Assembly: GCA_010015585.1 (NCBI GenBank)
Contig: ML975156.1
Reading direction: 5' to 3' (one strand)
Length of the DNA stretch: 20,000 nucleotides
DNA from: Eremomyces bilateralis CBS 781.70
Lineage: Eukaryota
Part shown: positions 1,883 through 18,818 of the stretch, one piece after another
Numbering within the stretch: the first letter of the stretch is position 1
Layout: every line of letters starts with the position of its first letter
Translations under genes and position numbers: made by a program
Notes under the pieces: generated by a model
The model's input: the letters and a program-made list of their open reading frames with translations, nothing else
Database searches by the model: none
What the model was told of the DNA's origin: nothing

Positions 1883-3500
1883 CTATACATCTAGTTCAAA
1901 TACAGAGCATAAGTGCTCGAATCTAGATTTGCGTGCTCTGAAATCCTCTCCGCCTTTTCCGCAGCTTTCCGCTCCGCTTCTTTGGCCGCCTCCTGCAACG
2001 CAACGATTTGCTCAATTGTAGCAAATCTTTCGTTCAAATCAGGCTAGACTCGTTTCCTTTTCCTCGTAGTCGAACCACCTAGATCTTGAATAGTTTTTTC
2101 AAGTTGTAGAACGTGTGCTTTAAGTGCAGCGATTTCGGTATTCTTCTCCGCCAGGGACTTGGCCAACTTCCCCTAGAATCCCCCGAAGTCTCGCGATGAT
2201 ATTCCCTCAAACTTTTGCTTATATATGTCCTGTAGCCCCTTTAGTATGCTATAGGTATACGGAATTAGTTTAGGGGTCACACGACTGGGCATTACGGTGT
2301 GAATTTCGTTCAATTACGAAACTATTTAATACTTTGGCTGGGTTAAAGGGCACCATTCCTGTTCCACGAAACCCTGCACGTATGTTATGCGAATTTAGAG
2401 CCGTATTTCGAGATTTATAATATATTTCTATAAAATTATGCTTCTTAACTGGTGCAGAGTCATCAAGCGAAGATAGGCGGCTCAGTTCTTTATGATATCT
2501 TGATTTCAGGGGCGAAAAGCATGCAATATCTAAAGGCTGGAGGACATGGGAAGAATGGGCTGGCAAACATAAAATAAATACCTTACTATCTTTCGCCGAC
2601 TTCATGAGCTGGATCTTAGCATGCGTACCGTGCCCGGCGCATACCAAAAAGCGCTATTCTCGGGAGTCTTCTCCTCCATTTTGGTTCAGGGGTTTGGCCT
2701 CCCGTAAGAACTTTTTCTCGAGCCATTATAAGCCAATTTCGTTGGATGTCTAGGCAATTTCTGAGGACGTATAATGCCAGTTCGGGATATCGCGAGAAGG
2801 GAACTACGTCGACTGCAGAGATTTGCCTTTAAGGATAATCAGGGGCGTAATTGATCGGCCATCTGCATATATGTATTCTAGGATAGAGACCCATTCTCTA
2901 TCTTTAGGAATCTTCACGTATATCGTGTTCTTCTTCCTCTTTTGCTTCTCCTAGACTGGTGTAATTACGCGGCCATTAATTCCGCACCCTAGGGCGATGC
3001 TATGCTCATTAAAATTCCACTGGTTATTGGTTTTAATGTTATACCTTTCGATAATGCGTGTATAAGCCGAAAAGAACTCCGAAATAACATCTTTTGTGGC
3101 AGAATTTATTCTAGAAGCCTCGATCGTCCGTCCGATAATCGTTTCTTACCTCAGGATTCCGGAGTAGAAACCCGTCGGTCTAATTTGTGCCGCAGGGAGT
3201 GTTATCTCTATTTTCTTTCGCAATCAGTTCTGCCATTTAGCGAACCTGGGCATGCGAAGGGGCCCTCCCGCAAAGGTCTTCTTCCGTAATCCACTAGACC
3301 AGCCATTTTTCTTGATCTTTTGACAACTTTTGCAACTTCTCGGCCCCTTTTTGATAGGATTCGGTGCCCTTTTAGATATGTTCTTAGAGAGTAGAGTACT
3401 TAACGCCATAAGCCTCCGCAAATTTGTGAATCGATGGGAATTCTCGATCTCAAAAAGCTTATATAGCTTCAGCAATTGCACTTTCATTTATAGGAGGCAT
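1883..3500 (-). pseudogene. Fot1/pogo DDE transposase pseudogene
   Basis: ATG at 3500 gives MPPINESAIAEAI*AF*DREFPSIHKFAEAYGVKYSTL* (HTH-psq-like), then KLSKDQEKWLV*WI (CENP-B HTH) and the DDE_1 region GHGTH...LPAHSSHVLQPLDIACFSPLK. Ends ...LCSVFELDV* at 1883. Many TAA/TAG/TGA codons are consistent with C>T/G>A transitions. Confidence 0.9.
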
Positions 3501-4494: not shown

Positions 4495-5981
4495 CTACTC
4501 GAGGGAATTGCAAGGGCCTATTGCTGGAACTTTTTAGATCCACTTCTGGCTCCCAAAAATGGGGAAGCTTGTTGGACGATGTTTTGGGACAAAATCTGTA
4601 CCCGACAGCAAGCAAGGAAACACAGTCTTGTTACATGACTGATATTGGCCTGATCCGTGTTATTATGCGCCGCCTCTCTAAAGGTTACCACTTGCGCTTC
4701 GTCTTGGTCTCGTTGCCGCAGTCCTCCTCATTACCGTATAGCTATTGTCGCCGGTGCCATTACCATCAGAGGCGTCCGAACTCTCGCCTCTCTCTGAATC
4801 GAAGGGTTGCTGATGAAACCGTCGGCACAAGCGATTGCGCAGTACTGTTGCAACTCCAAGCAGGGCCAAGGTAATATCCTTTGCTGCTCCCCGGCAACGC
4901 AAGAAATTCGCCAACCAGACTCCCGCAAATACAGCTTCAACCTCGTCTGCTTCGAGCGGAACGAGAAGCTCTGTGTTCTTTCCAGTTTTAGCACCCGAAT
5001 TTGGCAGGCAGCTCATTCACCATCGCCGCGTTTGCGAGCGATTTGAAAGAGACGGACACTTGCTGCGTCATGCGCCATGATGGTGCCTACTACCGCTGTC
5101 AGCTCTACTATGAAGCAAGAAAATAAGATATGGCCATAGAGTGCCCCTAGCGGAGCCCTCGAAGTTGAAACCCCCGACAACCTCAATGATCACTCCAGTG
5201 CAGTGGACGGGATTCAGTCTGTTAGCTTGTCGTCCTCTGATCTAAAAGAGAAGAGCCGGGACGCTTTCATACCAAATCCATCAATCTCCAAACCCCGGCT
5301 GTTGCTCCGTTTGATTGCGTTGGTTGACAGCTCTGCTCGGCCAGCCTCTGGCCGTTGGTCCTCTACAACACGGTTCGTCGCTTCAAACGTATTTACCTAA
5401 TTACAAGCCTGACTGATCGGCATTTCTATCTAGAAAGAGCCTAGTACCGGTCATGCTTCTATAGAATGCTTATCAAATCTCTAAACTCCGACAATTTCAG
5501 CGGTAAGTTGCCGGCTTCGTTTCAATGCCTCAGCGATGACGGGTACGGTCTCGGAAGTGACCATAGAAAAGGGCAGCAAGATGGTTTTCTAATAAATCTA
5601 TGCCAGTTCCCGCCGCTCGCCGAAAGTGCATTTCCTATTTCGGAGTTACCAGCCTCTGTGTGTAAACGGATCACCTCACCGCTACTGCGCTCTCCCTTTC
5701 GCTAGGCGACGGAATTAGTTATTCCAGAGATTTGGGCCGATAATTCAAATCAATAGAACAAACGGAGCAACGTGCAATCCCGTTTTTCACTCTGCTTCCG
5801 TTCAACACTTTGGGAGGCTAATCATGAATCTAGCTTGTAACCCTATGATATAAAGGTCACCTGCTGGAAGGAAGACCAATTCTCATGGCGTAAATGGGAG
5901 CTTTCATGATTCTTAGCCGTTGACCTAATCGGCCTCGTTTTCCCTGATCAGTTTCCACATTTGGTTTTCAATCACCCCAAC

Positions 5982-8260
5982 ATGACGGGCCCAGGGTCAA
6001 AAATCAGCGGTATAGCCGATCCGGCGCTCCTGAACAAAGTTGACAAACTGTTTGCGAGCGGAGTTGGAGAATACGTATCTCTTCCGCAGATTGTAGCCGT
6101 CGGAGACCAGTCCAGCGGTAAAAGTTCTGTTCTTGAAGCATTAACCGGCCTGCCTTTCCCAAGGGACAGTGATCTCTGCACCCGGTTCGCGACGCAGATC
6201 AGGTTCTGCCGGGCACCAAAACCGGAGATTTCGATCTCCATCATTCCGGCCAGTGGTAGTAGCGGGGAGCACGTCGAAGCATGCACCGCCTGGTCAAAGT
6301 CCGGCCTCGAGGACCTGGACCCAGAAACATTCTCTAGCATCATGAGAGAGGTTCGCATATCCATCTGGGTTCTATCCACGGCTAACGTCTTTAGGCACAT
6401 ACAATTATGGGAATCGATGGCGGAATCACCTTCTCCGACGACGTGCTCCGCATTGAAATATACGGGCCGGATCAAGAGCACTTTTCGGTTGTTGATGTCC
6501 CCGGAATCTTCAGAAAGACCACCGAAGGGGTCACGACCAAAGCGGACAAGAAAAAGGTCGAAGCGATGGTCCGGCGATATATGGAGAATCCCCGGTCTAT
6601 CATTCTGGCGGTCGTTCCTGCCAATGTGGACATTGCAACACAAGAGATCCTGACAATGGCCGAGGAGGTGGATCCAGATGGACACAGGACACTTGGGGTC
6701 CTGACCAAGCCAGACTTGGTCGACAGAGGGGCTGAATCGGCGTTGATTTCCCTTGTTGAGGGCAAAAGGCACAAACTGACCTTAGGATGGTGCATTGTTC
6801 GCAATCCTGGACAAAGTCAGCTCGAGAATTCATCTGTCAACCGAGAAGCAATTGAGACGGCCTTCTTCCAGGACAACCTTCCTTGGAACACTCTTGAGAA
6901 GGACAGAGTTGGCATCAGTTCTTTGCGGCTTCGACTGCAGGAGATCCTCGCCAGTAACATCCGTCGCGAGTTTCCAAAGGTGCGTCGAGCCCCCGGCGTT
7001 CTGAAGCGATGCTAATCCTGCCGCAGGTCAAATATGAGATCCATAAGAAGCTCAATGCCCGCAGAAAGCTTCTCGACAACCTGGGCGCAAAAAGAGAAAC
7101 GGCGGACGAACAGCGTCAATACCTTTTGGGTATAAGTGAACGGTTCCAAAAATTCGTGATGTCCGCACTCTCCGCAGATTACGTGGGCGATGATTGGTTT
7201 GATAAGTTCCCAAACCTTCGTTTCGCTACTGCGGTTGTGAACCGCAATGAGGCTCTCGCGAAAATGCTGGCACAATACGGTCACTCGTATATTTTCGACA
7301 GAGAACGACGCGTCAGCGCAGAGGACGGAGATCAATGCGACAGCTCAGAGGACGGAGATGAAAATGACGAAGAAATCGAACGGCAAATTTCAGTCCGAGC
7401 CCAGGAGGACCCCGAGGGCTTGGACGAGCTGCCGCCCGGAGAGAACACGATAGTCAGCCAAACTCCTCGGGGTATTTTTAAGTGGCTATCAAGAGTCTAC
7501 GAGACGTCGCGTGGTTTTGAGCTCGGTACCTTTGATGGTTCACTTCTTGCTATGACGATGAAGACTCAGTCGTCTAAATGGGAGCCAATCGCCGTCGGTT
7601 ACATCAATGATATCATCAGTATGGCGCATACGTTCGTCCGAGACTTATTGCATCTGGTCTGCCCGAATCTCCGCGTGTGGGAAGGTCTCATGTCGGTCCT
7701 CATGGATGAGCTCTTGGCGAAGTATAAAGCTGCGCTCGGCTATGTCCGTTTCCTCCTCCATGTCGAGAGGACCGGAACGCCAGCGACTCTGAATCACTAC
7801 TTCGCCGATAACCTGGAAAAGTGGTAAGTCTATACATCCCGTTTTTGCATCAGCCGCTTATGATTTTACCAGCCGCCAAAAGCGCATTCGCGCCGATCTG
7901 CAAGAGAAAACCTTCGCCGATTGCAGCCACGGCGAAGTTGTCCGCCTCGAAGACATTGTGCAGAACCATCACACGTCTAATGTCGAGCATGTCGTCCAAG
8001 AGATCCATGACATCCTCGAATCCTACTATAAAGTCGCTCGTAAGCGCTTCGCGGATAATCTGTGCATGCAAGCAGCGGACTACCACCTCGTGACAGGGCC
8101 TTGCTCCCCGCTGAGATTCTTTGGCACGGCTTTCGTGAGCAACCTGTCCGAAGAACAATTGATGGATATCGCCGGGGAAGATGCCGCCTCACGAACGAAG
8201 CGTGCTGCTCTGACCAAGGAGATTGCAGATCTTGAAGCCGGAAAGAAAATCGTATCCTAA
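5982..8260 (+). CDS. Dynamin-family (Mx-like) large GTPase, ~712 aa, 4 exons (5982-6350, 6395-6979, 7027-7823, 7873-8260)
   Basis: G1 LPQIVAVGDQSSGKSSVLE, G2 LCTRFAT, G3 VVDVPG, G4 TKPD, and a GED-like C-terminus YYKVARKRFADN. Three 44-49 nt GT..AG introns join the frames into one stop-free ORF. Confidence 0.93.
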
Positions 8261-8680
8261 TTTTGGACTGCATGTACTGTAGCAAGGCAGTTCGGTGTTT
8301 GAGTACTCCGTAAGTTAGCATTAGTTATCCCTTCTTTTGGTAGTTTTTGCTTGGATGGACCGCCTGTTGTGAATGGCGCATATTTAGCCAATCATTTGTA
8401 GCAGACTATCTTCCCCGCTCTCCGCCAACCGGTCACGACTTCCTTGCTCCTGCACAGTTTGTATTGACATGTTCCGGTGCAATGTCAGTTCTAGTTGAAC
8501 CAAACCTACCACGCTCTGGTTTAGTACACCATAACGGGCGCCTTGCAGATTAAAGATAAAGGAGTGGCATCCAATGGCAGCTATCCACGTTACTCATTAC
8601 CCTTATATTTCCAATTTATACAAGACATTTAGCTGGCAATCCTTTCGCAGTGCTTCTCACGACCATTTCCTTCATTTGCC

Positions 8681-10013
8681 ATGTCTAGTCAACCCGCAAT
8701 ATCACCAAAGTTTCTAGAACGCTGGAAAGATGTTCATAATGCTGTCACCACATTCTCCCAAGTTGCAAAGTCGTTAAATGAGGTCGAAGAGGTTATGATC
8801 GAGAGGAGAACACTGGGTGATCAAGTAAAGCGGCTGGAGACGGAAAGGTCCGAGAGTGCTGGGGAGGTCGCCTCTCTTAAAACAACACATACCGTCCTGA
8901 TCCAGCAATTTGAGTTAAGGTACAATAGCTGGGAGCTTGAACGCAAGGAATTACGAGAGCAATACGAAGACGGGAAGCGAAAAGGCCAGCAAGAGCTTGA
9001 TGATATTAAAAGAGAATTAGCTGCAAGGGAAGGCCAGCTTCGAACCGCGCAGTCTAGTATAGTAGAGAAGGATGTAAAAATTCTAGGTTTGGAGAGGAGC
9101 CTACATGAGGCACTGAACGAACTACGAGATATTAGAGGCGCTATCGGGTTAATAGATCTGGACGAGAGTTTGTCAGTATCGGACTCCCACGATATGCGCA
9201 TTTACTAACGTTAGGGGTTGGCAGTTCCGGCCAACTTTCGGAGATATCGAGCACGCTGCGGGCGATAGCGCAAGATTTTTTCTTTACAACCCTTCCAGAG
9301 AAAAATATGGTACGCGAACCCTTTATGTGATATCTTTAACTAACCTCGTCAAGGATACACTGTATCGCCAGCTTCGACAATCTCGTTTCATTGCTCGTCC
9401 ATTCGTGATACCAATATCTAACAGCATTCCTTCTCAGCACCTCAGGATGGTCGCCGCACAAGCTCTTATTGCCCGGCAACTTTCAAACAAGATCTTTCGC
9501 ACTATCCACGTTTCAGAGTCTCCCACACCCCGAGACTTGGACAAGATGTCGACCGAGTACCCCCTACGTGGCACGGTGTTTCGTGCTATGCACGCGACTG
9601 CATTTAATGAACAAGAGAAAGAGCTGATAGACAACGATATTGAAGAAATCACAGACAATCTCATTAGAAGTACTCAACCTCTTGTTTCTGACAGCGAAAA
9701 CCTTAAAATGAGGCTTCGAAAGCTTTTCAAGGATGCGTTATGGCTTTGGCAATACGCGAGAAGAAACATAGAGAGAGTCTATTGCTCTATAGACAGTGTA
9801 AACTGGAACCATTGCGAAGAGTATCAGAGTCCCACCATTACCAAAGAACGCGACTTACCAAAGGTGCGGACTTCTGATATAGTTTTGTTCCCTTGCATAC
9901 ATTTGCGGTCAGGTCGCAAGCCTTTCCATCCTGGCTATGTTCTTCGGTCTGACAATCCTCTTCTGATGCTAGGTGCGATAGAGGCTACGGAGCAGGATTC
10001 TCATGTATCGTGA
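8681..10013 (+). CDS. Coiled-coil protein of unknown function, ~411 aa, 3 exons (8681-9171, 9225-9309, 9354-10013)
   Basis: Exon 1 is E/K/R/L-rich with heptad character. Introns gtcagt..ctaac..cag and gtacgc..ctaac..aag keep the frame. The C-terminal domain PISNSIPSQHLRMVAAQALIARQLSNKIFR resembles, from memory, fungal proteins loosely annotated as MEI5-like. Confidence 0.75.
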
Positions 10014-10229
10014 TCTCCTTTGGGCACACAGGGTAAGGGAAAGTTAAGACTAGCTTCGAGGGCATATTCAAGGGACAATGCAGCTTTGGCCAGACATCTA
10101 TTATGTATTTATCTACTATTCTAGGCTCTCCGTTTCAGGGTAACAGTATGTAAACGTCGGCTCCGAGATACACTTTAAGAGCCATGCAGCGCAGGTTCAC
10201 AATATATCCTTCTGGATATCACTGTCTCA

Positions 10230-10417
10230 TGTCATGGGCCCAAACCACGAAGGATTTGGTAAGCTGGTAACGCTGTTGAATTGCTAAAGAGAGAAGGAGA
10301 AGATCTCTCTTACTGCGATCTGCTATTTACATCTGTGGGCAAACGGTCTACCCATCCCTTCTGCCTTAGGCTGCAAGGCCACAACACACAGACTGGGCGA
10401 AGCCCAAGACTGTCACA
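10230..10417 (-). mobile_element. Solo LTR family A, copy 1 (188 bp)
   Basis: TGTCA...TCACA termini with a perfect 5-bp TSD TCTCA (10225-10229, 10418-10422). Differs from copies 2 and 3 at about 5 positions each. Strand inferred from motif order. Confidence 0.93.
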
Positions 10418-10937
10418 TCTCATCCACATATGTCAAAGAAAATGAGACTTGCACGTCCGCGTTTAGGTCGCACGACAATCAAGTCTTGCCGCTTCTAGAT
10501 GATTTATAACTGTTGCATCAACTACTCCAGATCTTAACTTGAAGGGCAGTTGACGAGGATAAGAATCGGATAATTAAACCTTGGGGGACTGGCCGTCCAG
10601 GGGCAGCGGGGTAAAGGATGTGTTCCGAAATCCATTAACCTAACAACCAGTTTCCTGGATTCTGAAAATGGTAATTTACAGACTCCTATTTATTTCATTT
10701 ATTTCTTACATCCACCCTAGCCATGCGGTCGCGTCCTACAGTGACGAGCAGAGTCGGTTTCCAGTTTTACGCTTCAATATGATCTCGACGTACTGTCGCA
10801 TTACGCGGGGGTGATGATTAAGCAAGTTCGCTGCTTAAGCTCAGTTACCGTACTGTATAGACACAACGCATGTTGATATTGACGATTCCCATTGTATCCC
10901 CGAGTGTGTTTTCGCTAGCTAAACCGTTGAAAATAGG

Positions 10938-11109
10938 TGTGATGGATCAGAGGTCCGCAGACCTGGATGCCTTGTGGCCTTGTGGCCCGTTTGCTCTGTA
11001 AACACCAGAACAGATAAACGCCTCGCACACCTTAGATAGATTCCTCCTTCATAGCAACAATTCAATGTTTGCCTCACGATTGGAGATTCCCGACAGTGAG
11101 ACTCTTACA
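10938..11109 (+). mobile_element. Solo LTR family B (172 bp)
   Basis: TGTGA...TTACA with a perfect TSD ATAGG (10933-10937, 11110-11114). Contains GCCTTGTGGCCTTGTGGCC and TAGATAG plus a pyrimidine tract. Confidence 0.85.
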
Positions 11110-11513: not shown

Positions 11514-13550
11514 ATGCGGCAGCTTAGCAGTGGCCCCAGCGGCAGCTTCCGCCTGACCCACTTCCCCAGCGACAGTATTCCCAGCTATGCAATCCTTTCG
11601 CACACCTGGGACGCGGATGACCAGGAGGTTACATTCCAAGATATTACGAATACCGTGGGAACCAGCAAGACAGGCTATAGAAAGATCGAGTTTTGTAAGG
11701 AGCAAGCAAAGAAACATGGGCTTCAGTATTTCTGGGTGGACAGCTGCTGCATCGACAAGTCAAGTAGCGCCGAGCTCACAGAGGCTCTTAACTCGATGTT
11801 TCGCTGGTACGGGGATGCAGCAAAATGCTATGTGTATCTCTCAGACGTTTCAACAGGAAAGCACACCCGGTCTTCTGAGCTCCCATGGGAACCGGCGTTT
11901 AGGCGGAGTCGATGGTTCACCAGAGGCTGGACACTACAGGAGCTTCTTGCTCCGCGATCAGTCGAGTTTTTCTCCCGAGATGGCAAGCGACTTGGTAACA
12001 AAAAGTCGTTAGAACAGCAAATTCACGAGATTACTGGGATTGCAATTGGCGCACTTTAAGGACATCTGTCTCAATTCAGCAACGATGAGCGAATGTCATG
12101 GGCAAAAGAGCGAGAGACCAAGAGGGAAGAGGATCAAGCATATTGCCTCATGGGAATCTTTGGCGTCTACCTACCGGTCATCTATGGCGAGGGGAAAAGA
12201 AACGCACTCCAACGGCTTCGAAAAGAGATCGAAGAGGGTTCAGACGATACGCGAGGTAATTCAACCGCAAGTTTTTATGGTTAGCGGACTAATCTGCAAA
12301 GTGAAATGGAACGACAAGGAACTAAACTGTATGCAAGCCCTGCGTAATTCAGCTTCCGACTACGAGCAGTTCAAGGACCGGAACTCTAGCCGACTTAGAG
12401 ATACCTGCCAGTGGGTTCTCCGTCATGACCATTTCCGAAACTGGAAAGACAGCAGCTCCTCAAGTCTTCTTTGGATATCTGCGGATCCTGGATGCGGAAA
12501 ATCAGTTTTCTCTAAATCTCTTCTCGACGAAGATTTCAAAAACACGGACGCTGGCACAACTTGCTACTTCTTTTTCAAAGATGACAATGACGTACAGAAA
12601 AGTGCAGTTGCAGCGCTTGCGGCACTACTCCACCAGCTCTTTCGGCAGAAACCAACACTTATCAAACACGCTATGCCGGATTTCGCCGCTAATGGACATC
12701 AACTTTCTCAATCATTTCATATACTCTGGAGTATTCTAATAAAGACGGTGGCTGACCGGAATGCCGGGGAAGTCTTTTGCGTCTTGGATGCCCTCGACGA
12801 ATGCGCAGAAGGAGGGCAGTATCAGATTATTAACGCTCTCAGTTCATTCTACCAGCAAGCAAGCTCCGGAAACAATGCATCTCGACTCAAAATATGTGTC
12901 ACTAGTCGTCCTTACCCAGGCATTGAACGGCGCTTCACCGATCTTACTTCTAACTTTCCTACGATTCGGCTGCACGGCGAGCAAGAATCAGATATAATCA
13001 GTCATGAGATTGATCTAGTCATCAAATGGAGAGTATCTCAACTCGGATCTGAGCTCAAACTCAATAATTCAGAACAGTCAAATCTCGAAACAGAGCTGTT
13101 GAGCATGAGCCACCGAACATACCTCTGGTCAACACTCATTTTCGATATCATTCGCAAAATGATTCGACCGACAAGTCGGAAACTAAAGGCAGTTATTAGT
13201 GGCCTTCCGTCCACAGTTGATGAAGCATACGAAGCGATTCTTACAAAAATCGAGGAGGACGATCGACCACAAGCACGGAAATTGCTCTCTATCGTTGTTG
13301 GAGCAACCAGGCCTCTTACACTAACAGAAATGAACATCGCTCTAGCTATAGAAGACCGCCATCGCTCCTTCGACGACCTTGAACCTGACCTTGACGATGA
13401 AGCGAGGTTTGAAGCGTCGGTGAGACACCTCTGCGGGCTCTTTGTGACTGTAGTGGATCGAAAGGTCTATCTGATCCATCAAACTGCAAAAGAATTCCTT
13501 CTCGCGAAGAGTGAGGCCGCTGCTATTGGATATAAATATTCTCTTGTTCT
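11514..13550 (+). pseudogene. HET-NACHT NLR-like gene, nonsense codon at 12057-12059, 3'-truncated by LTR (exons 11514-12255, 12302-13550)
   Basis: HET motifs YAILSHTW, YFWVDSCCIDK, NSMFRWY and SRWFTRGWTLQELLAP. The frame continues past TAA into RMSWAKERETKREEDQAYCLMGIF. A 46-nt intron precedes the NACHT Walker A WISADPGCGKS, Walker B VLDALDEC and winged-helix LIHQTAKEFL. No repeat/sensor domain is present before the LTR. Confidence 0.9.
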
Positions 13551-13738
13551 TGTCAAGGGCCCAAACCACGAAGGATTTGGTAAGCTGGTAACGCTGTTGA
13601 ATTGCTAAAGAGAGAAGGAGAAGGTCTCTCTCACTGCGATCTGCTATTTACATCTGTGGGCAAACGGTCTACCCATCCCTTCTGCCTTAGGCCGCAAGGC
13701 CACAACACACAGACTGGGCAAAGCCCAAGACTGTCACA
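13551..13738 (-). mobile_element. LTR family A, copy 2 (188 bp), no TSD
   Basis: Near-identical to 10230-10417. Flanks GTTCT and CAAAG do not match. Truncates the NACHT gene. Confidence 0.93.
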
Positions 13739-14267
13739 CAAAGTAGAGTTTGTAGAGGTTGACTTTGATGCGGATCGATTTGATACGGGAAATTCCAGCA
13801 GTCCTCGATATCCGTTACTGAATATATGATCGAGAGTTAGTTTCGTCCTGTGGTTCGGCGCCATATTAGAGGACTGCGTTAAAATGTGACTGCACGCGAT
13901 CGTGAATGTCCCAGCGCCTCTGCGTGGATCACGAGACTTGATGAGATTAGTGAGATCAATCCCGACTAGAACGCCTCGTCACTTGTGATTCGACGCCATT
14001 AATCGGCAACAGCCGTAGTTCTGTCCAACCGACCAGCCAGACGCATGCATTAGCGCCTGGTCAGGTCGCAAAGCGCAAGGCTGAGGTCGCGGAGAACAAG
14101 CTGCGAAGTGACCGGAAAACGAACGCAGCCTTATAATGGCCTTTCTCTGCCGTTACGGTCGTCGTCCTTGTCCGACTCAACTCTAGCTTCTTCGTTGACC
14201 TAGGCGAACCGCACAACCTGTCATTCTACCCGCCCATCTGCTGGCCTAGCGCGCTTCCCTCCACACC

Positions 14268-15296
14268 ATGGCATCCCGCAACTCTCTCGACAGCCCCGAC
14301 TCCTATGCGGTCGCCTGGATCGCAGCTCTTCCCATCGAGCGGGCCGCTGCAGAAGCAATGTTTGACGAGGAACATGCTCCTCCAACTGGCTTCACTAGGC
14401 ACCAAATCGACGCGAACCGTTATACATGGGGTCGTATGGGAGAGCACAACATCGTTATCGTCTCCCTTGCCGCCGGAGACTATGGAACCACCTCGGCTGC
14501 GTCCACGGCCTCGAGCCTGCTTGCCTCTCTGCCATCCATCCGTGTTGGTCTTCTGGTCGGCATAGGCGGTGGCATCGCACGACCGGACGATGACCGCGAT
14601 ATCCGGCTCGGCGACATTGTCGTGAGCCAGCCCGATGGGACTGCAGGCGGCGTCTGCCAGTACGACTTGATTAAGGCAAAGCCTGGTAACAGGCGTGAGC
14701 GCAAAGGCTTCCTCGGACGGCCTCCGACGGTTCTCCTCAACGCGCTTGCCAGCATCCAGGCCGATCACGAGCGGAAAGACTCCAAAGTTCCCTACTTCCT
14801 TCAACAGATGTTAGAGAAATACCCGAAGATGGGCAAGAGATCCAAGACAAGTCCTGGCTATACTCACCAGGGCTTCGACAAAGACCGCCTCTTCAAAGCT
14901 TCTAGTGGCCACGTCTCCGGGTCGGACTGTCGGGGCTGCGACGCGGCTGGCGACGTTCAACGCGATCCTCGAGACACCACCGACCCCGATATCCACTACG
15001 GGACTATCGTATCCGGCAACACGCTGGTCAAAGACGCCGCTGCGCGCGATCGGATTATTGCCGACGTCGGCGAGGATTGCATCTGCTTTGAGATGGAAGC
15101 AGCCGGCCTGATGAACCACTTTCCCTGTCTTGTGATCCGAGGGATCTGCGACTACGCCGATTCCCACAAGAACGATCGATGGCAACGTTACGCCTCGGCC
15201 ACCGCCGCTGCGTATACTAAGGAGCTCCTGGCGTACGTGCCGGTCGCGGAGGTCCAGGAGACCAAGAAAGCGCTGGAAATGCTTCAATCAGGTTAG
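14268..15296 (+). CDS. Purine/uridine phosphorylase (PNP_UDP_1, Pfs) domain protein, N-terminal effector of a truncated NLR
   Basis: YAVAWIAALPIERAAA, GLLVGIGGG, DIRLGDIVVS, IHYGTIVSGN, CFEMEAAGLMNHFPCLVIRGICDYADSHKNDRWQRYA. 342 open codons. The stop lies just inside a predicted intron (15292-15385). Confidence 0.88.
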   Translation: MASRNSLDSPDSYAVAWIAALPIERAAAEAMFDEEHAPPTGFTRHQIDANRYTWGRMGEHNIVIVSLAAGDYGTTSAASTASSLLASLPSIRVGLLVGIGGGIARPDDDRDIRLGDIVVSQPDGTAGGVCQYDLIKAKPGNRRERKGFLGRPPTVLLNALASIQADHERKDSKVPYFLQQMLEKYPKMGKRSKTSPGYTHQGFDKDRLFKASSGHVSGSDCRGCDAAGDVQRDPRDTTDPDIHYGTIVSGNTLVKDAAARDRIIADVGEDCICFEMEAAGLMNHFPCLVIRGICDYADSHKNDRWQRYASATAAAYTKELLAYVPVAEVQETKKALEMLQSG

Positions 15297-15826: not shown

Positions 15827-16023
15827 AGATCTACTCGGCGCTGGGAGTCTTGGTTACATTAATCCTGGAGCCCAGGTTGTTAAGGCAATTGGGAACGGAG
15901 TTTTACGATGGACCGAGGTGTCTTTGATCTAGTTATAGAAACTGGAGAGCTATAAGTCAATAAGCGGAGCATGTTTGATATTGAAGCTTGGAAGTTCAGA
16001 ATCTTGAAGTAATGGCTAGTTCC

Positions 16024-16211
16024 TGTCGTGGGCCCAAACCACGAAGGATTTGGTCAGCTGGTAACGCTGTTGAATTGCTAAAGAGAGAAGGAGAAGGTCT
16101 CTCTCACTGCGATCTGCTATTTACATCTGTGGGCAAACGGTCTACCCATCCCTTCTGCCTTAGGCCGCAAGGCCACAACACACAGACTGGGCGAAGCCCA
16201 AGACTGTCACA
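16024..16211 (-). mobile_element. LTR family A, copy 3 (188 bp), no TSD
   Basis: About 4 differences from copy 2. Flanks GTTCC and CAGGC do not match. Abuts the truncated LINE. Confidence 0.93.
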
Positions 16212-17925
16212 CAGGCAGATATTTACAGCGACGGTCGCGCCAACCACCGACTATGGTGCTCCGATCTGGTTCCCAGGCTCCGCAGGGACAGTAGCCCGTC
16301 ATATCGAGAGGGCCACCAAACTGGGGGCGAGCGCAATCACGGCCATCTTCAGGTCCGCGGCGTACGACGTGGTAACTGGCGAGGCCGGGATCGAATCAGT
16401 CCAGGATAGGCTCTACGAACTAACGAGGAAACACTGGATTAAGATGCATACGAAACCACCGAACCACTATAGCTGGCGACTTATCCGACGCCTACACAAA
16501 ACTGAAAGGCATAGGTCACCTCTAGAAGCTACAGCGGAGATCTTCCAACACGTCAAGCTAGATACGCTCGAGAAGGTAGAGGCGTTTGTTAAGCCGCCAT
16601 GGCAAGATCCACCTTGCGTTGTAATCAACGAGGAGACGATTGCAATCGGGAAGGTCACCCAGCTCGGCCTTAGAACCATTTTCACCGATGGATCATATCG
16701 GAACGGCCTGGCGGGTATCGGGATCTATGCCCCGAATATCCCACGTCTCCGTAAAGCTCGCACAATAGGACTAACACCAGGCGTCGATGCCCTTTATGCA
16801 GAACTGACCGCCATCTCGGAAGCCATCTCGGAAGCAGCCGTTAATATCCCCGCGCTAGGCCTCGGCCTCGACCACTGTTATATCTTATCGGACTGTAAAA
16901 GAGCCCTCGACACGATCAAGACGCCATAGTAGAAAAGGAGTAGAACCCTCCAAGAGATCTTCCGGAAACTTGCAGAGACAAAGGAAAAGGGATTCACGTT
17001 CACCTTCCATTGGGTGCCGGCACATAAGGGCGTCCCCGGCAATGAAGAGGCACACTCCCTTGCCCAATCCGCTACCTCTGCGGGATCGCAGCCGGAGGGG
17101 TACACTGAAGTACTTCGACACCTAATCCGGCAAGGGCGAAGACAGCAGGGAGCGAAACGCACGGCTTTCCTGGCCGGGAAGACAGGGCGCTTCGGAAAGA
17201 CACTCGACAACGCACTCCCAGGCAGACATATAAGGAAACTTTACGATAACCTAACAAGAGTCCAAGCGGCGCTCCTCGTCCAAGTCCGATCAGGTTACAG
17301 CCGCCTTAACGGCTATCTCCACAGGATCACGATGGCCGAAAGCAGCGCCTGCGAGTGCGGAGTAACTGAGACCGTCCGTCACTTTATCCTTGAATGCCCG
17401 ATATGGGAATCTCAGAGGCGGCAGATAAGGACAATAGCTGGACCCCGAGTAGGAGACTTGGCGTATCTCGTCGGCGCATACGAATCCGAGGCCAAAGACG
17501 GACCGATCAAGCGGTGGTCTCTAGACCTAAAAGCAGTGATGGCGATGATACAGTTTGTTAAAGATACAGGAAGACTAGACCCGGGGGCTTAGCTACCCCT
17601 TTCCTCTCTAACTAACTTTCTATTCTACTAACTACACGGTCTCCACCCTCTGACCCGACGCTGTGCCCGAGTAAGAGCAGCGTCACTCTAGAACACAACC
17701 TAGAAAGACAGAAACGTCCAGGAAATGGACCGTTTTCATACACTACCCTTGTAATACTCTCCTTTGTTTAACAGACGCGGAAAATGGAAAGCGGCAGGAA
17801 AGAAATATATTGACAAGGCCATAAGGACACAAGGCAACCATCATGTAATTAGTCATCCTAGCTAGTTCCCCACATGGGCCTCGCAGAGAGGCCTGGCGGG
17901 CGTATGAATCTCTCTCTCTCTCTCT
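16212..17925 (+). mobile_element. 5'-truncated LINE (Tad1-like non-LTR retrotransposon): RT tail, RNase H, CCHC knuckle, 3' UTR, (CT)n tail
   Basis: QIFTATVAPTTDYGAPIW (post-RT), RNase H IFTDGS..AELTAI..ILSDC..HWVPAHKGVPGNEEAHSLA, and CECGVTETVRHFILEC. In-frame TAG TAG at 16927-16932 and stop at 17592. A GGCCTC..GAGGCC hairpin is followed by ATGAAT(CT)n to 17925. Confidence 0.92.
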
Positions 17926-17945: not shown

Positions 17946-18700
17946 CTAAGCACCGCCAAAGACTAAAAGGCTTTGAATATTGATTCTGCCAAACCCACGC
18001 CGGCGCAATAGTTCCCGGCCACGGTGAACCGGAAACTCGGCCACGGTCATTATGCTGACATCATCGGAGCCGATTCCATCTTTATCCAGAAGCTGTAACA
18101 CCGCACAGAGCGTCTTCCCGGTGGAGAGTACATCGTCCACCACTACCACGAAACCCCCCCTGGGTAGGACATCCCGTTCCATTTCGATCCGCTTCTCCGT
18201 CGAATCGTTGGATTCCAAAGAAGAGATATGCGATGAGAGCTTGATAACCGACACGGTGGGTGGAGGGAGCTTGCCAGCGTCCCGAGTCAGCACCAATGGC
18301 ACATTGACCCACGAGGCCAACGCCGACGCATAGACAAACCCGCCGGCCTCGCAACACACCACCGCATCGACTTTGGCCCAGTCACCGGCGAAGTGGGTTT
18401 TCAGCAGCGACGTACACAGGGCCAGCCCACCGGGCTTCTGGGAGATGCCGAGCACGTGACAGAACTCGATGCCGAGCACGTGACAGAACTCGATGCCTTG
18501 GCGCGGGTAGTCGGGTATCTGGCGCACCATGTCGGCCAGTCGCTGCAGGTCCTCGTGGAGGAAGGGAAGCAGGTATCGTTCGGCAAACTGTGTTGCCGCC
18601 TTATTCCCGGTCGTGTCGTTGTCGATGGTGAAACTGTGACAGTAATCCCAAGCTGTTGAACTCGACTTGCGACTGTTGTTGTCCTTGTTGTCCAGGATGC
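17946..18700 (-). CDS. Type I phosphoribosyltransferase (APRT-like) domain, probably the 3' fragment of a larger gene
   Basis: IPDYPRQGIEF, CCEAGGF, AGKLP and the PRPP-binding loop VVVVDDVLSTGKT. The frame is open upstream of the first ATG (18530) to about 18707, with no ATG there. Confidence 0.8.
18444..18497. repeat. Perfect 24-bp in-frame tandem duplication in the PRTase gene
   Basis: gatgccgagcacgtgacagaactc x2 plus gatgcc, which duplicates GIEFCHVL. Confidence 0.95.
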
Positions 18701-18818
18701 AGCTCACCTGAGGTAGGGAAAACTTCGGATGAGTCGGGTAAACCTCGGCACACCCACAAATAGTTCCACCGACTTCAAATTTACTCTCCCCACCTTTTCA
18801 CTAGATTGATCAACAACC

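Follow-up and report, generated by a model that had tools for sequence, protein, structure and literature searches.

A candidate fungal Mx-like dynamin and its coiled-coil neighbour in Eremomyces bilateralis are most likely independent genes

Introduction

Do two intact genes that lie side by side among relics belong together? Within a 20,000-nucleotide stretch of contig ML975156.1 of Eremomyces bilateralis CBS 781.70 (assembly GCA_010015585.1), which we call the window, a dynamin gene, apparently of the MxF type (5982-8260, plus strand, 4 exons, 712 aa), is followed by a coiled-coil gene, gene 2 (8681-10013, plus strand, 3 exons, 411 aa), across an intergenic spacer of 420 bp (8261-8680, plus strand) read directly from the sequence. 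The initial annotation proposed that the pair may be a conserved, mobile module of GTPase and adaptor. Fungal Mx-like dynamins received their name only in 2025, when MxF1 and MxF2 were presented as fungal Mx orthologues of patchy distribution, uncharacterised, present in 0-5 copies and often misannotated (PNAS 2025; PMC11789081, in its accessible parts), the one source on MxF in the literature searched. The reading that we favour, and hold to be probable though well short of certain, is that the window carries a catalytically competent MxF dynamin and a separate coiled-coil gene of a sparse family, independent neighbours in a relic-rich region.

The two genes and their transcripts

The dynamin gene runs from an ATG at 5982 to a TAA at 8258-8260 and encodes a 712-aa product without internal stop; its introns of 44, 47 and 49 nt are all GT..AG with a CTAAC/CTAAT-like branch site. 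Exon 1 (5982-6350, plus strand) carries the N-terminus and the G1 P-loop GDQSSGKS at residue 41 (Pfam Dynamin_N, 7.4e-12), and exon 2 (6395-6979, plus strand) the remaining G domain and the beginning of the middle domain (Dynamin_N 3.5e-19, Dynamin_M 8.4e-11), with G3 DVPG at residue 157 and G4 TKPD at residue 227. Exon 3 (7027-7823, plus strand), which had no Pfam match when searched alone, is collinear with an annotated 712-aa homologue, P0001, and covers the stalk (middle) region, where residues 415-458, approximately, make up an acidic loop; exon 4 (7873-8260, plus strand) encodes the GED (Pfam 7.1e-5). The G1, G3 and G4 motifs are all intact, and Pfam matched only Dynamin_N, Dynamin_M and GED, with no PH domain on any dynamin exon.

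Gene 2 extends from an ATG at 8681 to a stop at 10011-10013, and its RNA-supported exons give a protein of 411 aa. Exon 1 (8681-9171, plus strand) encodes a long coiled-coil-type helix with only weak coiled-coil matches in Pfam, exon 2 (9225-9309, plus strand) a linker whose GT..AG joints maintain the frame, and exon 3 (9354-10013, plus strand) a 219-aa C-terminal domain of unassigned family. An alternative first intron at 9168-9214 was discarded as two codons off; the intron with RNA support is 9172-9224.

Three sequencing runs bear on transcription: X1 and X2 are DNA runs, and X3 is probably an RNA run, its label 'RNA?' being a guess. Spliced X3 contigs cover both genes, and the GT..AG joints are seen in X3 and not in X1 or X2. 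In the dynamin, an X3 contig stops at 6351 and goes on with the opening letters of exon 2, and the joint 7822>7872 (GT..AG, 49 nt) occurs in X3 only, on a contig bearing the letters of a paralogue; in gene 2, the joints 9171>9225 and 9308>9353 (cut +1) are again GT..AG and confined to X3. No X3 contig lies over 6485-7426. One 3854-nt X3 contig spans 7988-9171 unbroken, including the entire spacer, which is not proof of a single transcript. Both window genes are expressed, as read from this probable RNA run. The picture of two co-oriented, open genes about 420 bp apart is borne out, with both on the plus strand, both open after splicing and their coordinates confirmed.

The neighbourhood

The same annotation described nearly everything around the pair as broken or RIP-damaged. 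Breakage is confirmed for three features: a DDE_1 relic (2273-2653, minus strand, 127 aa, Pfam); a HET-NACHT NLR-type gene (11514-13605, plus strand; NPHP3_N, DUF7069 and WHD by Pfam); and an RNase H frame (15985-17589) interrupted by in-frame stops. The HET-NACHT gene has an in-frame TAA at 12057-12059 within its HET domain, an intron at 12256-12301 that links HET to NACHT in frame, and a frame that terminates within a repeat copy, with no repeat domain following the WHD. However, a PNP_UDP_1 frame (14250-15293, 348 aa) and a phosphoribosyltransferase frame (17949-18797, minus strand, 283 aa) are open. Nor do the surroundings look RIP-damaged, with GC at 43-59% and a composite RIP index that is mostly negative and exceeds zero in just 2 of 20 one-kb windows (0.10 and 0.16). 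The 31 other small flank frames had no Pfam match.

The 3' boundary of the gene pair is a high-copy interspersed repeat of about 190 nt (10231-10418, strand unassigned; repeat family D1, with alignment), which has further copies at 13534-13740 and 16007-16213 and a summed contig depth about 400-980x that of the flanking unitig in the DNA runs X1 and X2. Many loose ends lie at 10230 in these runs; the 25-nt loose-end motif of a second copy of 9888-10230 is absent from the window. Scanning the window for Rfam families and tRNAs gave no match, so the repeat is no recognised tRNA-derived element. No terminal repeats frame the gene pair within the window.

A recently duplicated dynamin

The window dynamin aligns without gaps to P0001, with 648 of 712 residues identical. 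Variant contigs in X1, X2 and X3 differ from the window dynamin at 16 coding sites, 6 of them non-synonymous, each yielding the P0001 residue, and 10 synonymous; all 16 agree with P0001. A second dynamin copy at 91% protein identity is thereby detected in the same DNA runs and in X3 as well: the window dynamin and this second copy are paralogues of recent divergence, and the organism transcribes both. The lineage-specific duplication and variable copy number that mark the MxF family are seen here too. How the copies differ is uneven along the protein, residues 1-320 holding 16 of the 64 differences and the remainder (321-712) holding 48, with the densest cluster (16) within residues 401-480, encoded by exon 3.

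A sparse family for gene 2

AlphaFold2 models the N-terminus of gene 2 as a single helix of 146 residues (residues 9-154, pLDDT 93.2), whose hydrophobic 3.5-residue periodicity was matched by 33 of 2000 shuffles; a helix of this kind should form a coiled-coil oligomer. The C-terminal domain is predicted with confidence (pLDDT 88.7, pTM 0.85) and, in the model, is a compact alpha/beta domain without known fold: Foldseek against the PDB returned nothing at E<=1e-3, and a wide structure comparison gave a best Z of 6.0, to generic helical hairpins. Pfam matched neither this domain nor any of 59 family members at E<=1. A full protein scan found 54 relatives of the domain at E<=1e-3, distant ones from Pezizomycotina and at most 36% identical, and a word-index comparison of the domain with longer proteins found none. 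Gene 2 is collinear with one relative, P0124, over its full length, and named homologues occur in Penicillium, Aspergillus nanangensis, Xylona, Helotiales, Xylographa bjoerkii, Icmadophila, Lineolata and Scytalidium. Judged by these matches, gene 2 is a member of a sparse, uncharacterised Pezizomycotina family, and its product would most likely serve in scaffolding or binding.

Two named families were considered for it. Mieap proteins combine a coiled coil with a C-terminal domain, and gene 2 has a layout similar to that of Mieap (PF16026) and plant GIL1_IRKI_C (PF24994) proteins. These were the nearest named clusters in a language-model search, at 0.79 and 0.84, both under the 0.9 lead threshold; the top 30 clusters were all unnamed Ascomycota proteins. 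With no Pfam match in the family, both assignments were rejected.

Do the two genes form a module?

Might the coiled-coil protein be an adaptor or regulator of the Mx-like GTPase, co-expressed with it in tandem and retained by selection as a unit? The genes are co-oriented and closely spaced; they are intact beside broken NLR, transposase and RNase H frames; spliced X3 contigs cover both, and X3 sequence runs on unbroken from exon 4 of the dynamin, across the spacer, to gene 2; and a long coiled coil joined to a globular domain is a layout that an adaptor could plausibly have. Intact, expressed genes amid relics, with continuous X3 coverage of the spacer, are what a co-regulated pair would also look like. 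Nevertheless, a gene-2 profile that recovers the window itself at 4e-80 found no gene-2 relative at E<=1 at any of the 11 loci in metagenomes where the closest relatives of the dynamin lie, a small sample of two independent long contexts plus short contigs whose dynamins have a full-length identity to P0001 of only 55-63% and may belong to other paralogue lineages. At L003, the locus of the best complete relative, the neighbours are SPT16, a pof12 F-box gene, SAE2 and a Na/Ca exchanger.

Comparison of the two families points the same way. No fusion of dynamin and gene 2 occurs among the best 120 of 1136 dynamin matches or among 60 gene-2 relatives, and P0001 matched none of these 60 at E<=10 by phmmer. 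The families are of very different size, 1136 dynamin matches (E<=1e-3, protein search) against 54 gene-2 representatives. The named gene-2 homologues and the named entries of the best 120 dynamin matches have no species in common, and only the genera Aspergillus and Xylographa occur in both; the 13 matches of a gene-2 profile search likewise include no species of the best-120 dynamin list. The library with the 91% paralogue of the dynamin contains no gene-2 relative more than 36% identical. A complex prediction for P0001 and the gene-2 C-domain, run with no alignments and no controls, scored 0.00 and is evidence neither way. We regard such a two-gene module as unlikely. The conserved, mobile module of the initial annotation also goes without support from these comparisons or from any framing terminal repeats, although the tests are weak, and its expectation that homologues would be neighbours elsewhere failed on the dynamin side. 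Most likely the dynamin and gene 2 are neighbours independent of each other, and not a conserved two-component system.

A second version of the idea is a little less likely again. Here a young, lineage-specific defence module would have arisen when a duplicated MxF GTPase recruited the gene-2 protein as an oligomeric adaptor or regulator, with tandem co-expression in an NLR-rich accessory island. If true, gene 2 would encode the first known partner protein of any fungal Mx-like dynamin; the accessible parts of PMC11789081 report no MxF partner gene and no neighbourhood analysis.

In the bacterial dynamin-like systems (DynA, DLP1/DLP2, LeoABC), two dynamin-like GTPases work together, as separate partners or in fused form. 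The gene pair resembles these in that a GTPase of the dynamin superfamily has a co-oriented gene next to it and that a role in defence has been proposed, but gene 2 has no GTPase domain by Pfam and no similarity to dynamins. Antiviral bacterial dynamin-like proteins are mentioned in the accessible parts of PMC11789081.

An immune island?

A different connection would tie the dynamin, with or without gene 2, to the adjoining NLR-type genes as effector or guardee in allorecognition or anti-mycovirus signalling. HET-NACHT and PNP_UDP_1 domains are typical N-terminal or core parts of fungal NLRs, and both lie 1.5-4 kb downstream of the pair; the metagenomic loci L007-L009, an independent context, have a frame with a HET domain some 1.2 kb upstream of the dynamin relative. 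However, the window NLR is disrupted and the dynamin at L007 stops short at residue 411; both have the look of accessory DNA rich in relics. HET genes abound in Pezizomycotina, and L003 and L004 have housekeeping-type neighbours only. By word occurrence, 'dynamin' is absent from two fungal-immunity reviews in a listing-level search, the literature search returned no paper on Mx together with mycovirus, and the listings searched held nothing relevant on dynamin with NLRs or heterokaryon incompatibility. We consider such a functional tie improbable, more so than either form of the two-gene module.

An Mx-like rather than a housekeeping dynamin

What kind of dynamin is it? Against PDB chains, P0001 scores highest with Mx2 (165.6 bits) and Mx1 (162.7 bits), in alignments spanning residues 17-365, followed by the GTPase-BSE of Chaetomium thermophilum Vps1 (140.9 bits) and Drp1 (about 132), with C. 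thermophilum Mgm1 (about 83-84) and OPA1 (about 84) far below. Some of its homologues carry the source name 'Interferon-induced GTP-binding protein Mx2'. A putative placement in the Mx clade draws on PDB score ranking and on the source names of homologues. The Vps1, Drp1 and Mgm1 scores fall below those of vertebrate Mx and are too low for orthology to these single-copy genes, whose genuine Pezizomycotina orthologues should score several-fold higher. That the GTPase is a Vps1, Dnm1 or Mgm1 orthologue acting in vacuolar, mitochondrial or peroxisomal membrane dynamics is scarcely credible, for although the Dynamin_N, Dynamin_M and GED architecture is common to both and one homologue (P0118) bears the source name 'vacuolar sorting protein VPS1', the Vps1 and Mgm1 scores, the existence of a 91% paralogue and the frequent misannotation of MxF proteins (PMC11789081, accessible parts) all argue against it.

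The GTPase fits membership of the fungal Mx-like dynamin family MxF, and the earlier description of it as non-housekeeping and Mx-like is upheld by these scores and by the NLR-type relics that it adjoins. As described in the accessible parts of PMC11789081, MxF1 and MxF2 are large dynamin GTPases with middle domain and GED and no PH domain, as is the window dynamin, whose best scores are also against Mx; and they form a multi-copy, patchy Ascomycota family, consistent with the recent duplication at this locus. The 12 of 19 supplement files of that paper that were covered (accession tables and trees) contain no entries for Eremomyces, Aureobasidium or Zymoseptoria.

Discussion

Taking the dynamin as a probable MxF protein, what might it do? 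Vertebrate Mx1/MxA and Mx2/MxB, its best-scoring solved structures, share its three-part architecture and intact G motifs. Vertebrate Mx proteins are antiviral, and the window dynamin is likened to them by sequence alone; unlike the vertebrates that have Mx, fungi are not known to possess an interferon system. By analogy with dynamin and Mx biochemistry, the protein would bind and hydrolyse GTP through a dimerising G domain and self-assemble through its middle/GED stalk. The Mx L4 loop evolves rapidly, and the concentration of differences between the window dynamin and P0001 in the stalk and loops recalls it, although correspondence of the acidic loop (residues 415-458) to L4 is putative. The fast-changing stalk loops would be the likely target-recognition surface, and we propose that the role of the protein is most likely of a defence type or one of organelle or membrane surveillance, in a family that is itself uncharacterised. 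The dynamin and gene 2 both appear to have persisted in accessory DNA that is rich in repeats and full of NLR and transposon relics.

The claim of a two-component system is not supported. Gene 2 marks out a small family in Pezizomycotina, whose C-terminal domain is modelled with confidence yet has no counterpart in Pfam or among solved structures. On the dynamin side, the locus fits the MxF family described in 2025 (PMC11789081, accessible parts): it holds one of a young pair of 91% paralogues, both transcribed, with differences in the stalk and loops, and it does so among NLR relics. This combination of a paralogue pair, stalk and loop differences and NLR relics makes the locus a reasonable place to test the role of MxF in fungal immunity.

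Two neighbouring genes and their transcripts

The window DNA is fungal and Pezizomycotina-like, with short GT..AG introns, and the two genes at issue lie exactly where the initial annotation placed them, both read on the + strand across a 420-bp spacer and both open. The Mx-like dynamin gene runs from an ATG at 5982 to a TAA at 8258-8260 (+) in four exons (5982-6350, 6395-6979, 7027-7823 and 7873-8260) with introns of 44, 47 and 49 nt, and yields a 712-aa product with zero internal stops. Its neighbour, gene 2, extends from an ATG at 8681 to a stop at 10011-10013 (+), and spliced contigs give exons 8681-9171, 9225-9309 and 9354-10013, encoding 411 aa; the first intron as drawn in a preliminary model (9168-9214) is ruled out by these contigs, which set it at 9172-9224.

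The stretch is present in three of five listed runs, two of DNA from one sample (X1, X2) and X3, whose label 'RNA?' is a guess, and the runs were compared over 5700-10400. Three GT..AG joints (7822>7872, 9171>9225 and 9308>9353) occur in X3 only, and an X3 contig stops at 6351 and then runs on with the first letters of dynamin exon 2, which is the pattern of spliced RNA. The 7822>7872 joint lies on a contig with the letters of the dynamin's paralogue, and X3 contig coverage has a gap over 6485-7426. One 3854-nt X3 contig is unbroken from 7988, in dynamin exon 4, via the spacer and on through gene 2 in spliced form; the spacer is thus covered end to end by RNA-run sequence, which is no proof of a single transcript. 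Being contigs, these data are silent on transcript ends, strand and expression level.

What kind of protein does gene 2 encode? Exon 1 is predicted to form a single helix (residues 9-154, pLDDT 93.2) with a 3.5-residue hydrophobic periodicity equalled in 33 of 2000 shuffles, so the earlier label of coiled coil is reasonable. The C-domain (exon 3, 219 aa) matches no Pfam family. When 1.84 billion representatives were scanned exhaustively, 54 relatives emerged at E<=1e-3, of which 7 reach E<=1e-10; identity never exceeds 36%. Relatives with a named source, all hypothetical proteins, come from Aspergillus nanangensis, several Penicillium species, Xylona heveae, the Helotiales Acephala, Leptodontidium, Leptodophora and Cadophora, and Xylographa bjoerkii, Icmadophila, Lineolata and Scytalidium. 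Where relatives are full-length they align collinearly with gene 2, as P0124 does (its residues 12-424 against 11-412 of the preliminary model), so the layout in two parts is conserved. The predicted C-domain fold, a helical bundle plus a small sheet and a terminal helix (pLDDT 88.7, pTM 0.85), found no PDB match with Foldseek or with an exhaustive structural aligner (best Z 6.0, on generic hairpins). In a language-model atlas it falls among Ascomycota clusters without names (the three best shown score 0.94-0.96), and the named leads are confined to two weak ones (GIL1_IRKI_C, 0.84; MIEAP, 0.79). Gene 2 is expressed and belongs to a coiled-coil family that is uncharacterised; its product is most likely a scaffolding or binding protein.

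Neighbourhoods of dynamin relatives

The closeness of the two genes had led to the proposal that they form a conserved, mobile two-component module. A metagenome scan with the dynamin recovered 11 loci encoding relatives 65-84% identical to exon 2, and a gene-2 family profile found nothing at E<=1 in their six-frame translations; on the window itself it scored 4e-80 and 1e-18 on two gene-2 exons. Five long loci among the 11 represent two independent contexts. In L003/L004 a complete dynamin lies amid SPT16, a pof12 F-box gene, SAE2 and a Na/Ca exchanger, and in L007-L009 a dynamin truncated at residue 411 lies behind a Tc3-type transposase, DUF7587 and a HET-domain frame. No dynamin/gene-2 fusion occurs in the best 120 dynamin matches or in 60 gene-2 relatives, and no species is common to the named gene-2 relatives and the named entries of those 120 matches, which have only the genera Aspergillus and Xylographa in common. 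The library containing P0001, an annotated paralogue of the dynamin, holds no close gene-2 relative, but this counts for little, as neither of the two window proteins is in it. The pair also lacks flanking direct or inverted repeats such as would mark a mobile unit. Coming from the dynamin side, this evidence against a conserved module is real but thin; we consider a two-gene module unlikely and regard the dynamin and gene 2 as probably independent neighbours.

In L007 the HET-domain frame (7009-8262) lies ~1.2 kb upstream of the truncated MxF-type dynamin (9484-10978), as it does in L008 and L009; with the Tc3-type transposase next to it, this recalls the HET/NLR and transposon surroundings seen in the window.

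Genomic setting

The initial annotation described nearly everything around the pair as broken or RIP-damaged. Much is indeed broken. A DDE_1 relic (2273-2653, -) retains the last 100 residues of the transposase domain in a 127-aa frame, and an RNase H frame (15985-17589), a mobile-element relic, is split by in-frame stops at 16927-16932. A disrupted NLR-type HET-NACHT gene (11514-13605; NPHP3_N, DUF7069 and WHD by Pfam) has an in-frame TAA at 12057-12059 within its HET domain; a good 46-nt intron (12256-12301) links HET to NACHT in frame, no ANK, WD or TPR repeats follow the WHD, and the frame terminates within a repeat copy. The description was overstated in that a 348-aa PNP_UDP_1 frame (14250-15293) and a phosphoribosyltransferase frame (17949-18797, -) are open, and RIP damage is not evident, the composite index exceeding 0 in just 2 of 20 one-kb windows at a GC content of 43-59%. 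The PNP_UDP_1 frame begins with the N-terminal domain typical of NLRs and no nucleotide-binding domain follows; it encodes either a truncated NLR or a PNP_UDP protein that stands alone. A link between the dynamin and this NLR island, in place of gene 2, strikes us as very unlikely.

The repeat, of ~190 nt, is interspersed in three copies in 20 kb (10213-10419, also delimited as 10231-10418; 13534-13740; and 16007-16213; 91-95% alike), and its summed contig depth in the DNA runs is ~400-980x that of the flanking single-copy unitig. It has no Rfam or tRNA match and is likely to be a short non-autonomous element of very high abundance. Contigs break in number at 10230. The ~340 nt at 9888-10230, spanning the end of gene 2 on its 3' side and the adjoining flank, have a second copy elsewhere in the DNA runs, ~7% different and with unrelated sequence upstream of 9888; from 9989 onward the X3 contig over gene 2 carries the letters of that second copy. 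The locus sits in an accessory region rich in repeats and NLR relics.

The dynamin and its paralogue

Pfam finds Dynamin_N (exons 1 and 2), Dynamin_M (exon 2) and GED (exon 4) in the dynamin exons, and no PH domain; the G motifs are intact (G1 GDQSSGKS, G3 DVPG, G4 TKPD). A search with exon 2 returned 1136 proteins at E<=1e-3, the best 120 of which are nearly all from Pezizomycotina and ~700 aa long, with source names including 'dynamin GTPase', 'GED domain-containing' and 'Interferon-induced GTP-binding protein Mx1/Mx2'. The gene model is gaplessly identical at 648 of 712 residues to P0001, a 712-aa hypothetical protein annotated in Eremomyces bilateralis. P0001 was compared with the sequence of every solved structure and scored highest on Mx2 (165.6 bits) and Mx1 (162.7), ahead of Chaetomium thermophilum Vps1 (140.9), Drp1 (~132), Dynamin-1 (~105) and fungal Mgm1/OPA1 (~83-84). 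A true single-copy Vps1 or Mgm1 orthologue would be expected to score several-fold higher against the Chaetomium protein; by score ranking the GTPase therefore does not appear to group with core Vps1/Dnm1, its non-housekeeping character holds, and a housekeeping dynamin, at these Vps1 and Mgm1/OPA1 scores, is scarcely credible.

In X1 and X2 the dynamin region is broken up into short unitigs, and alternative contigs of similar depth differ from the window gene at 16 coding positions. All six non-synonymous changes give the residue of P0001, the other 10 being synonymous, so the organism carries two dynamin copies; both variants are present in X3. The 10:6 ratio, biased by pieces at least 95% alike, suggests purifying selection on the paralogues. 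The two proteins differ at 64 residues, 16 of them in the G-domain half (1-320); the stalk/GED half (321-712) has 48, a threefold excess, and the differences cluster in an acidic loop at 401-480 and again at 561-680. Like Mx, the paralogues appear to change faster in stalk loops.

Langley and colleagues gave the name MxF (MxF1, MxF2) to orthologues of animal Mx in fungi that are uncharacterised, number 0-5 per genome and are frequently misannotated (PMC11789081), and by score ranking the window dynamin would fit the family as described there. It thus appears to add to MxF, a known family whose function is unexplored, a new member that is recently duplicated and expressed.
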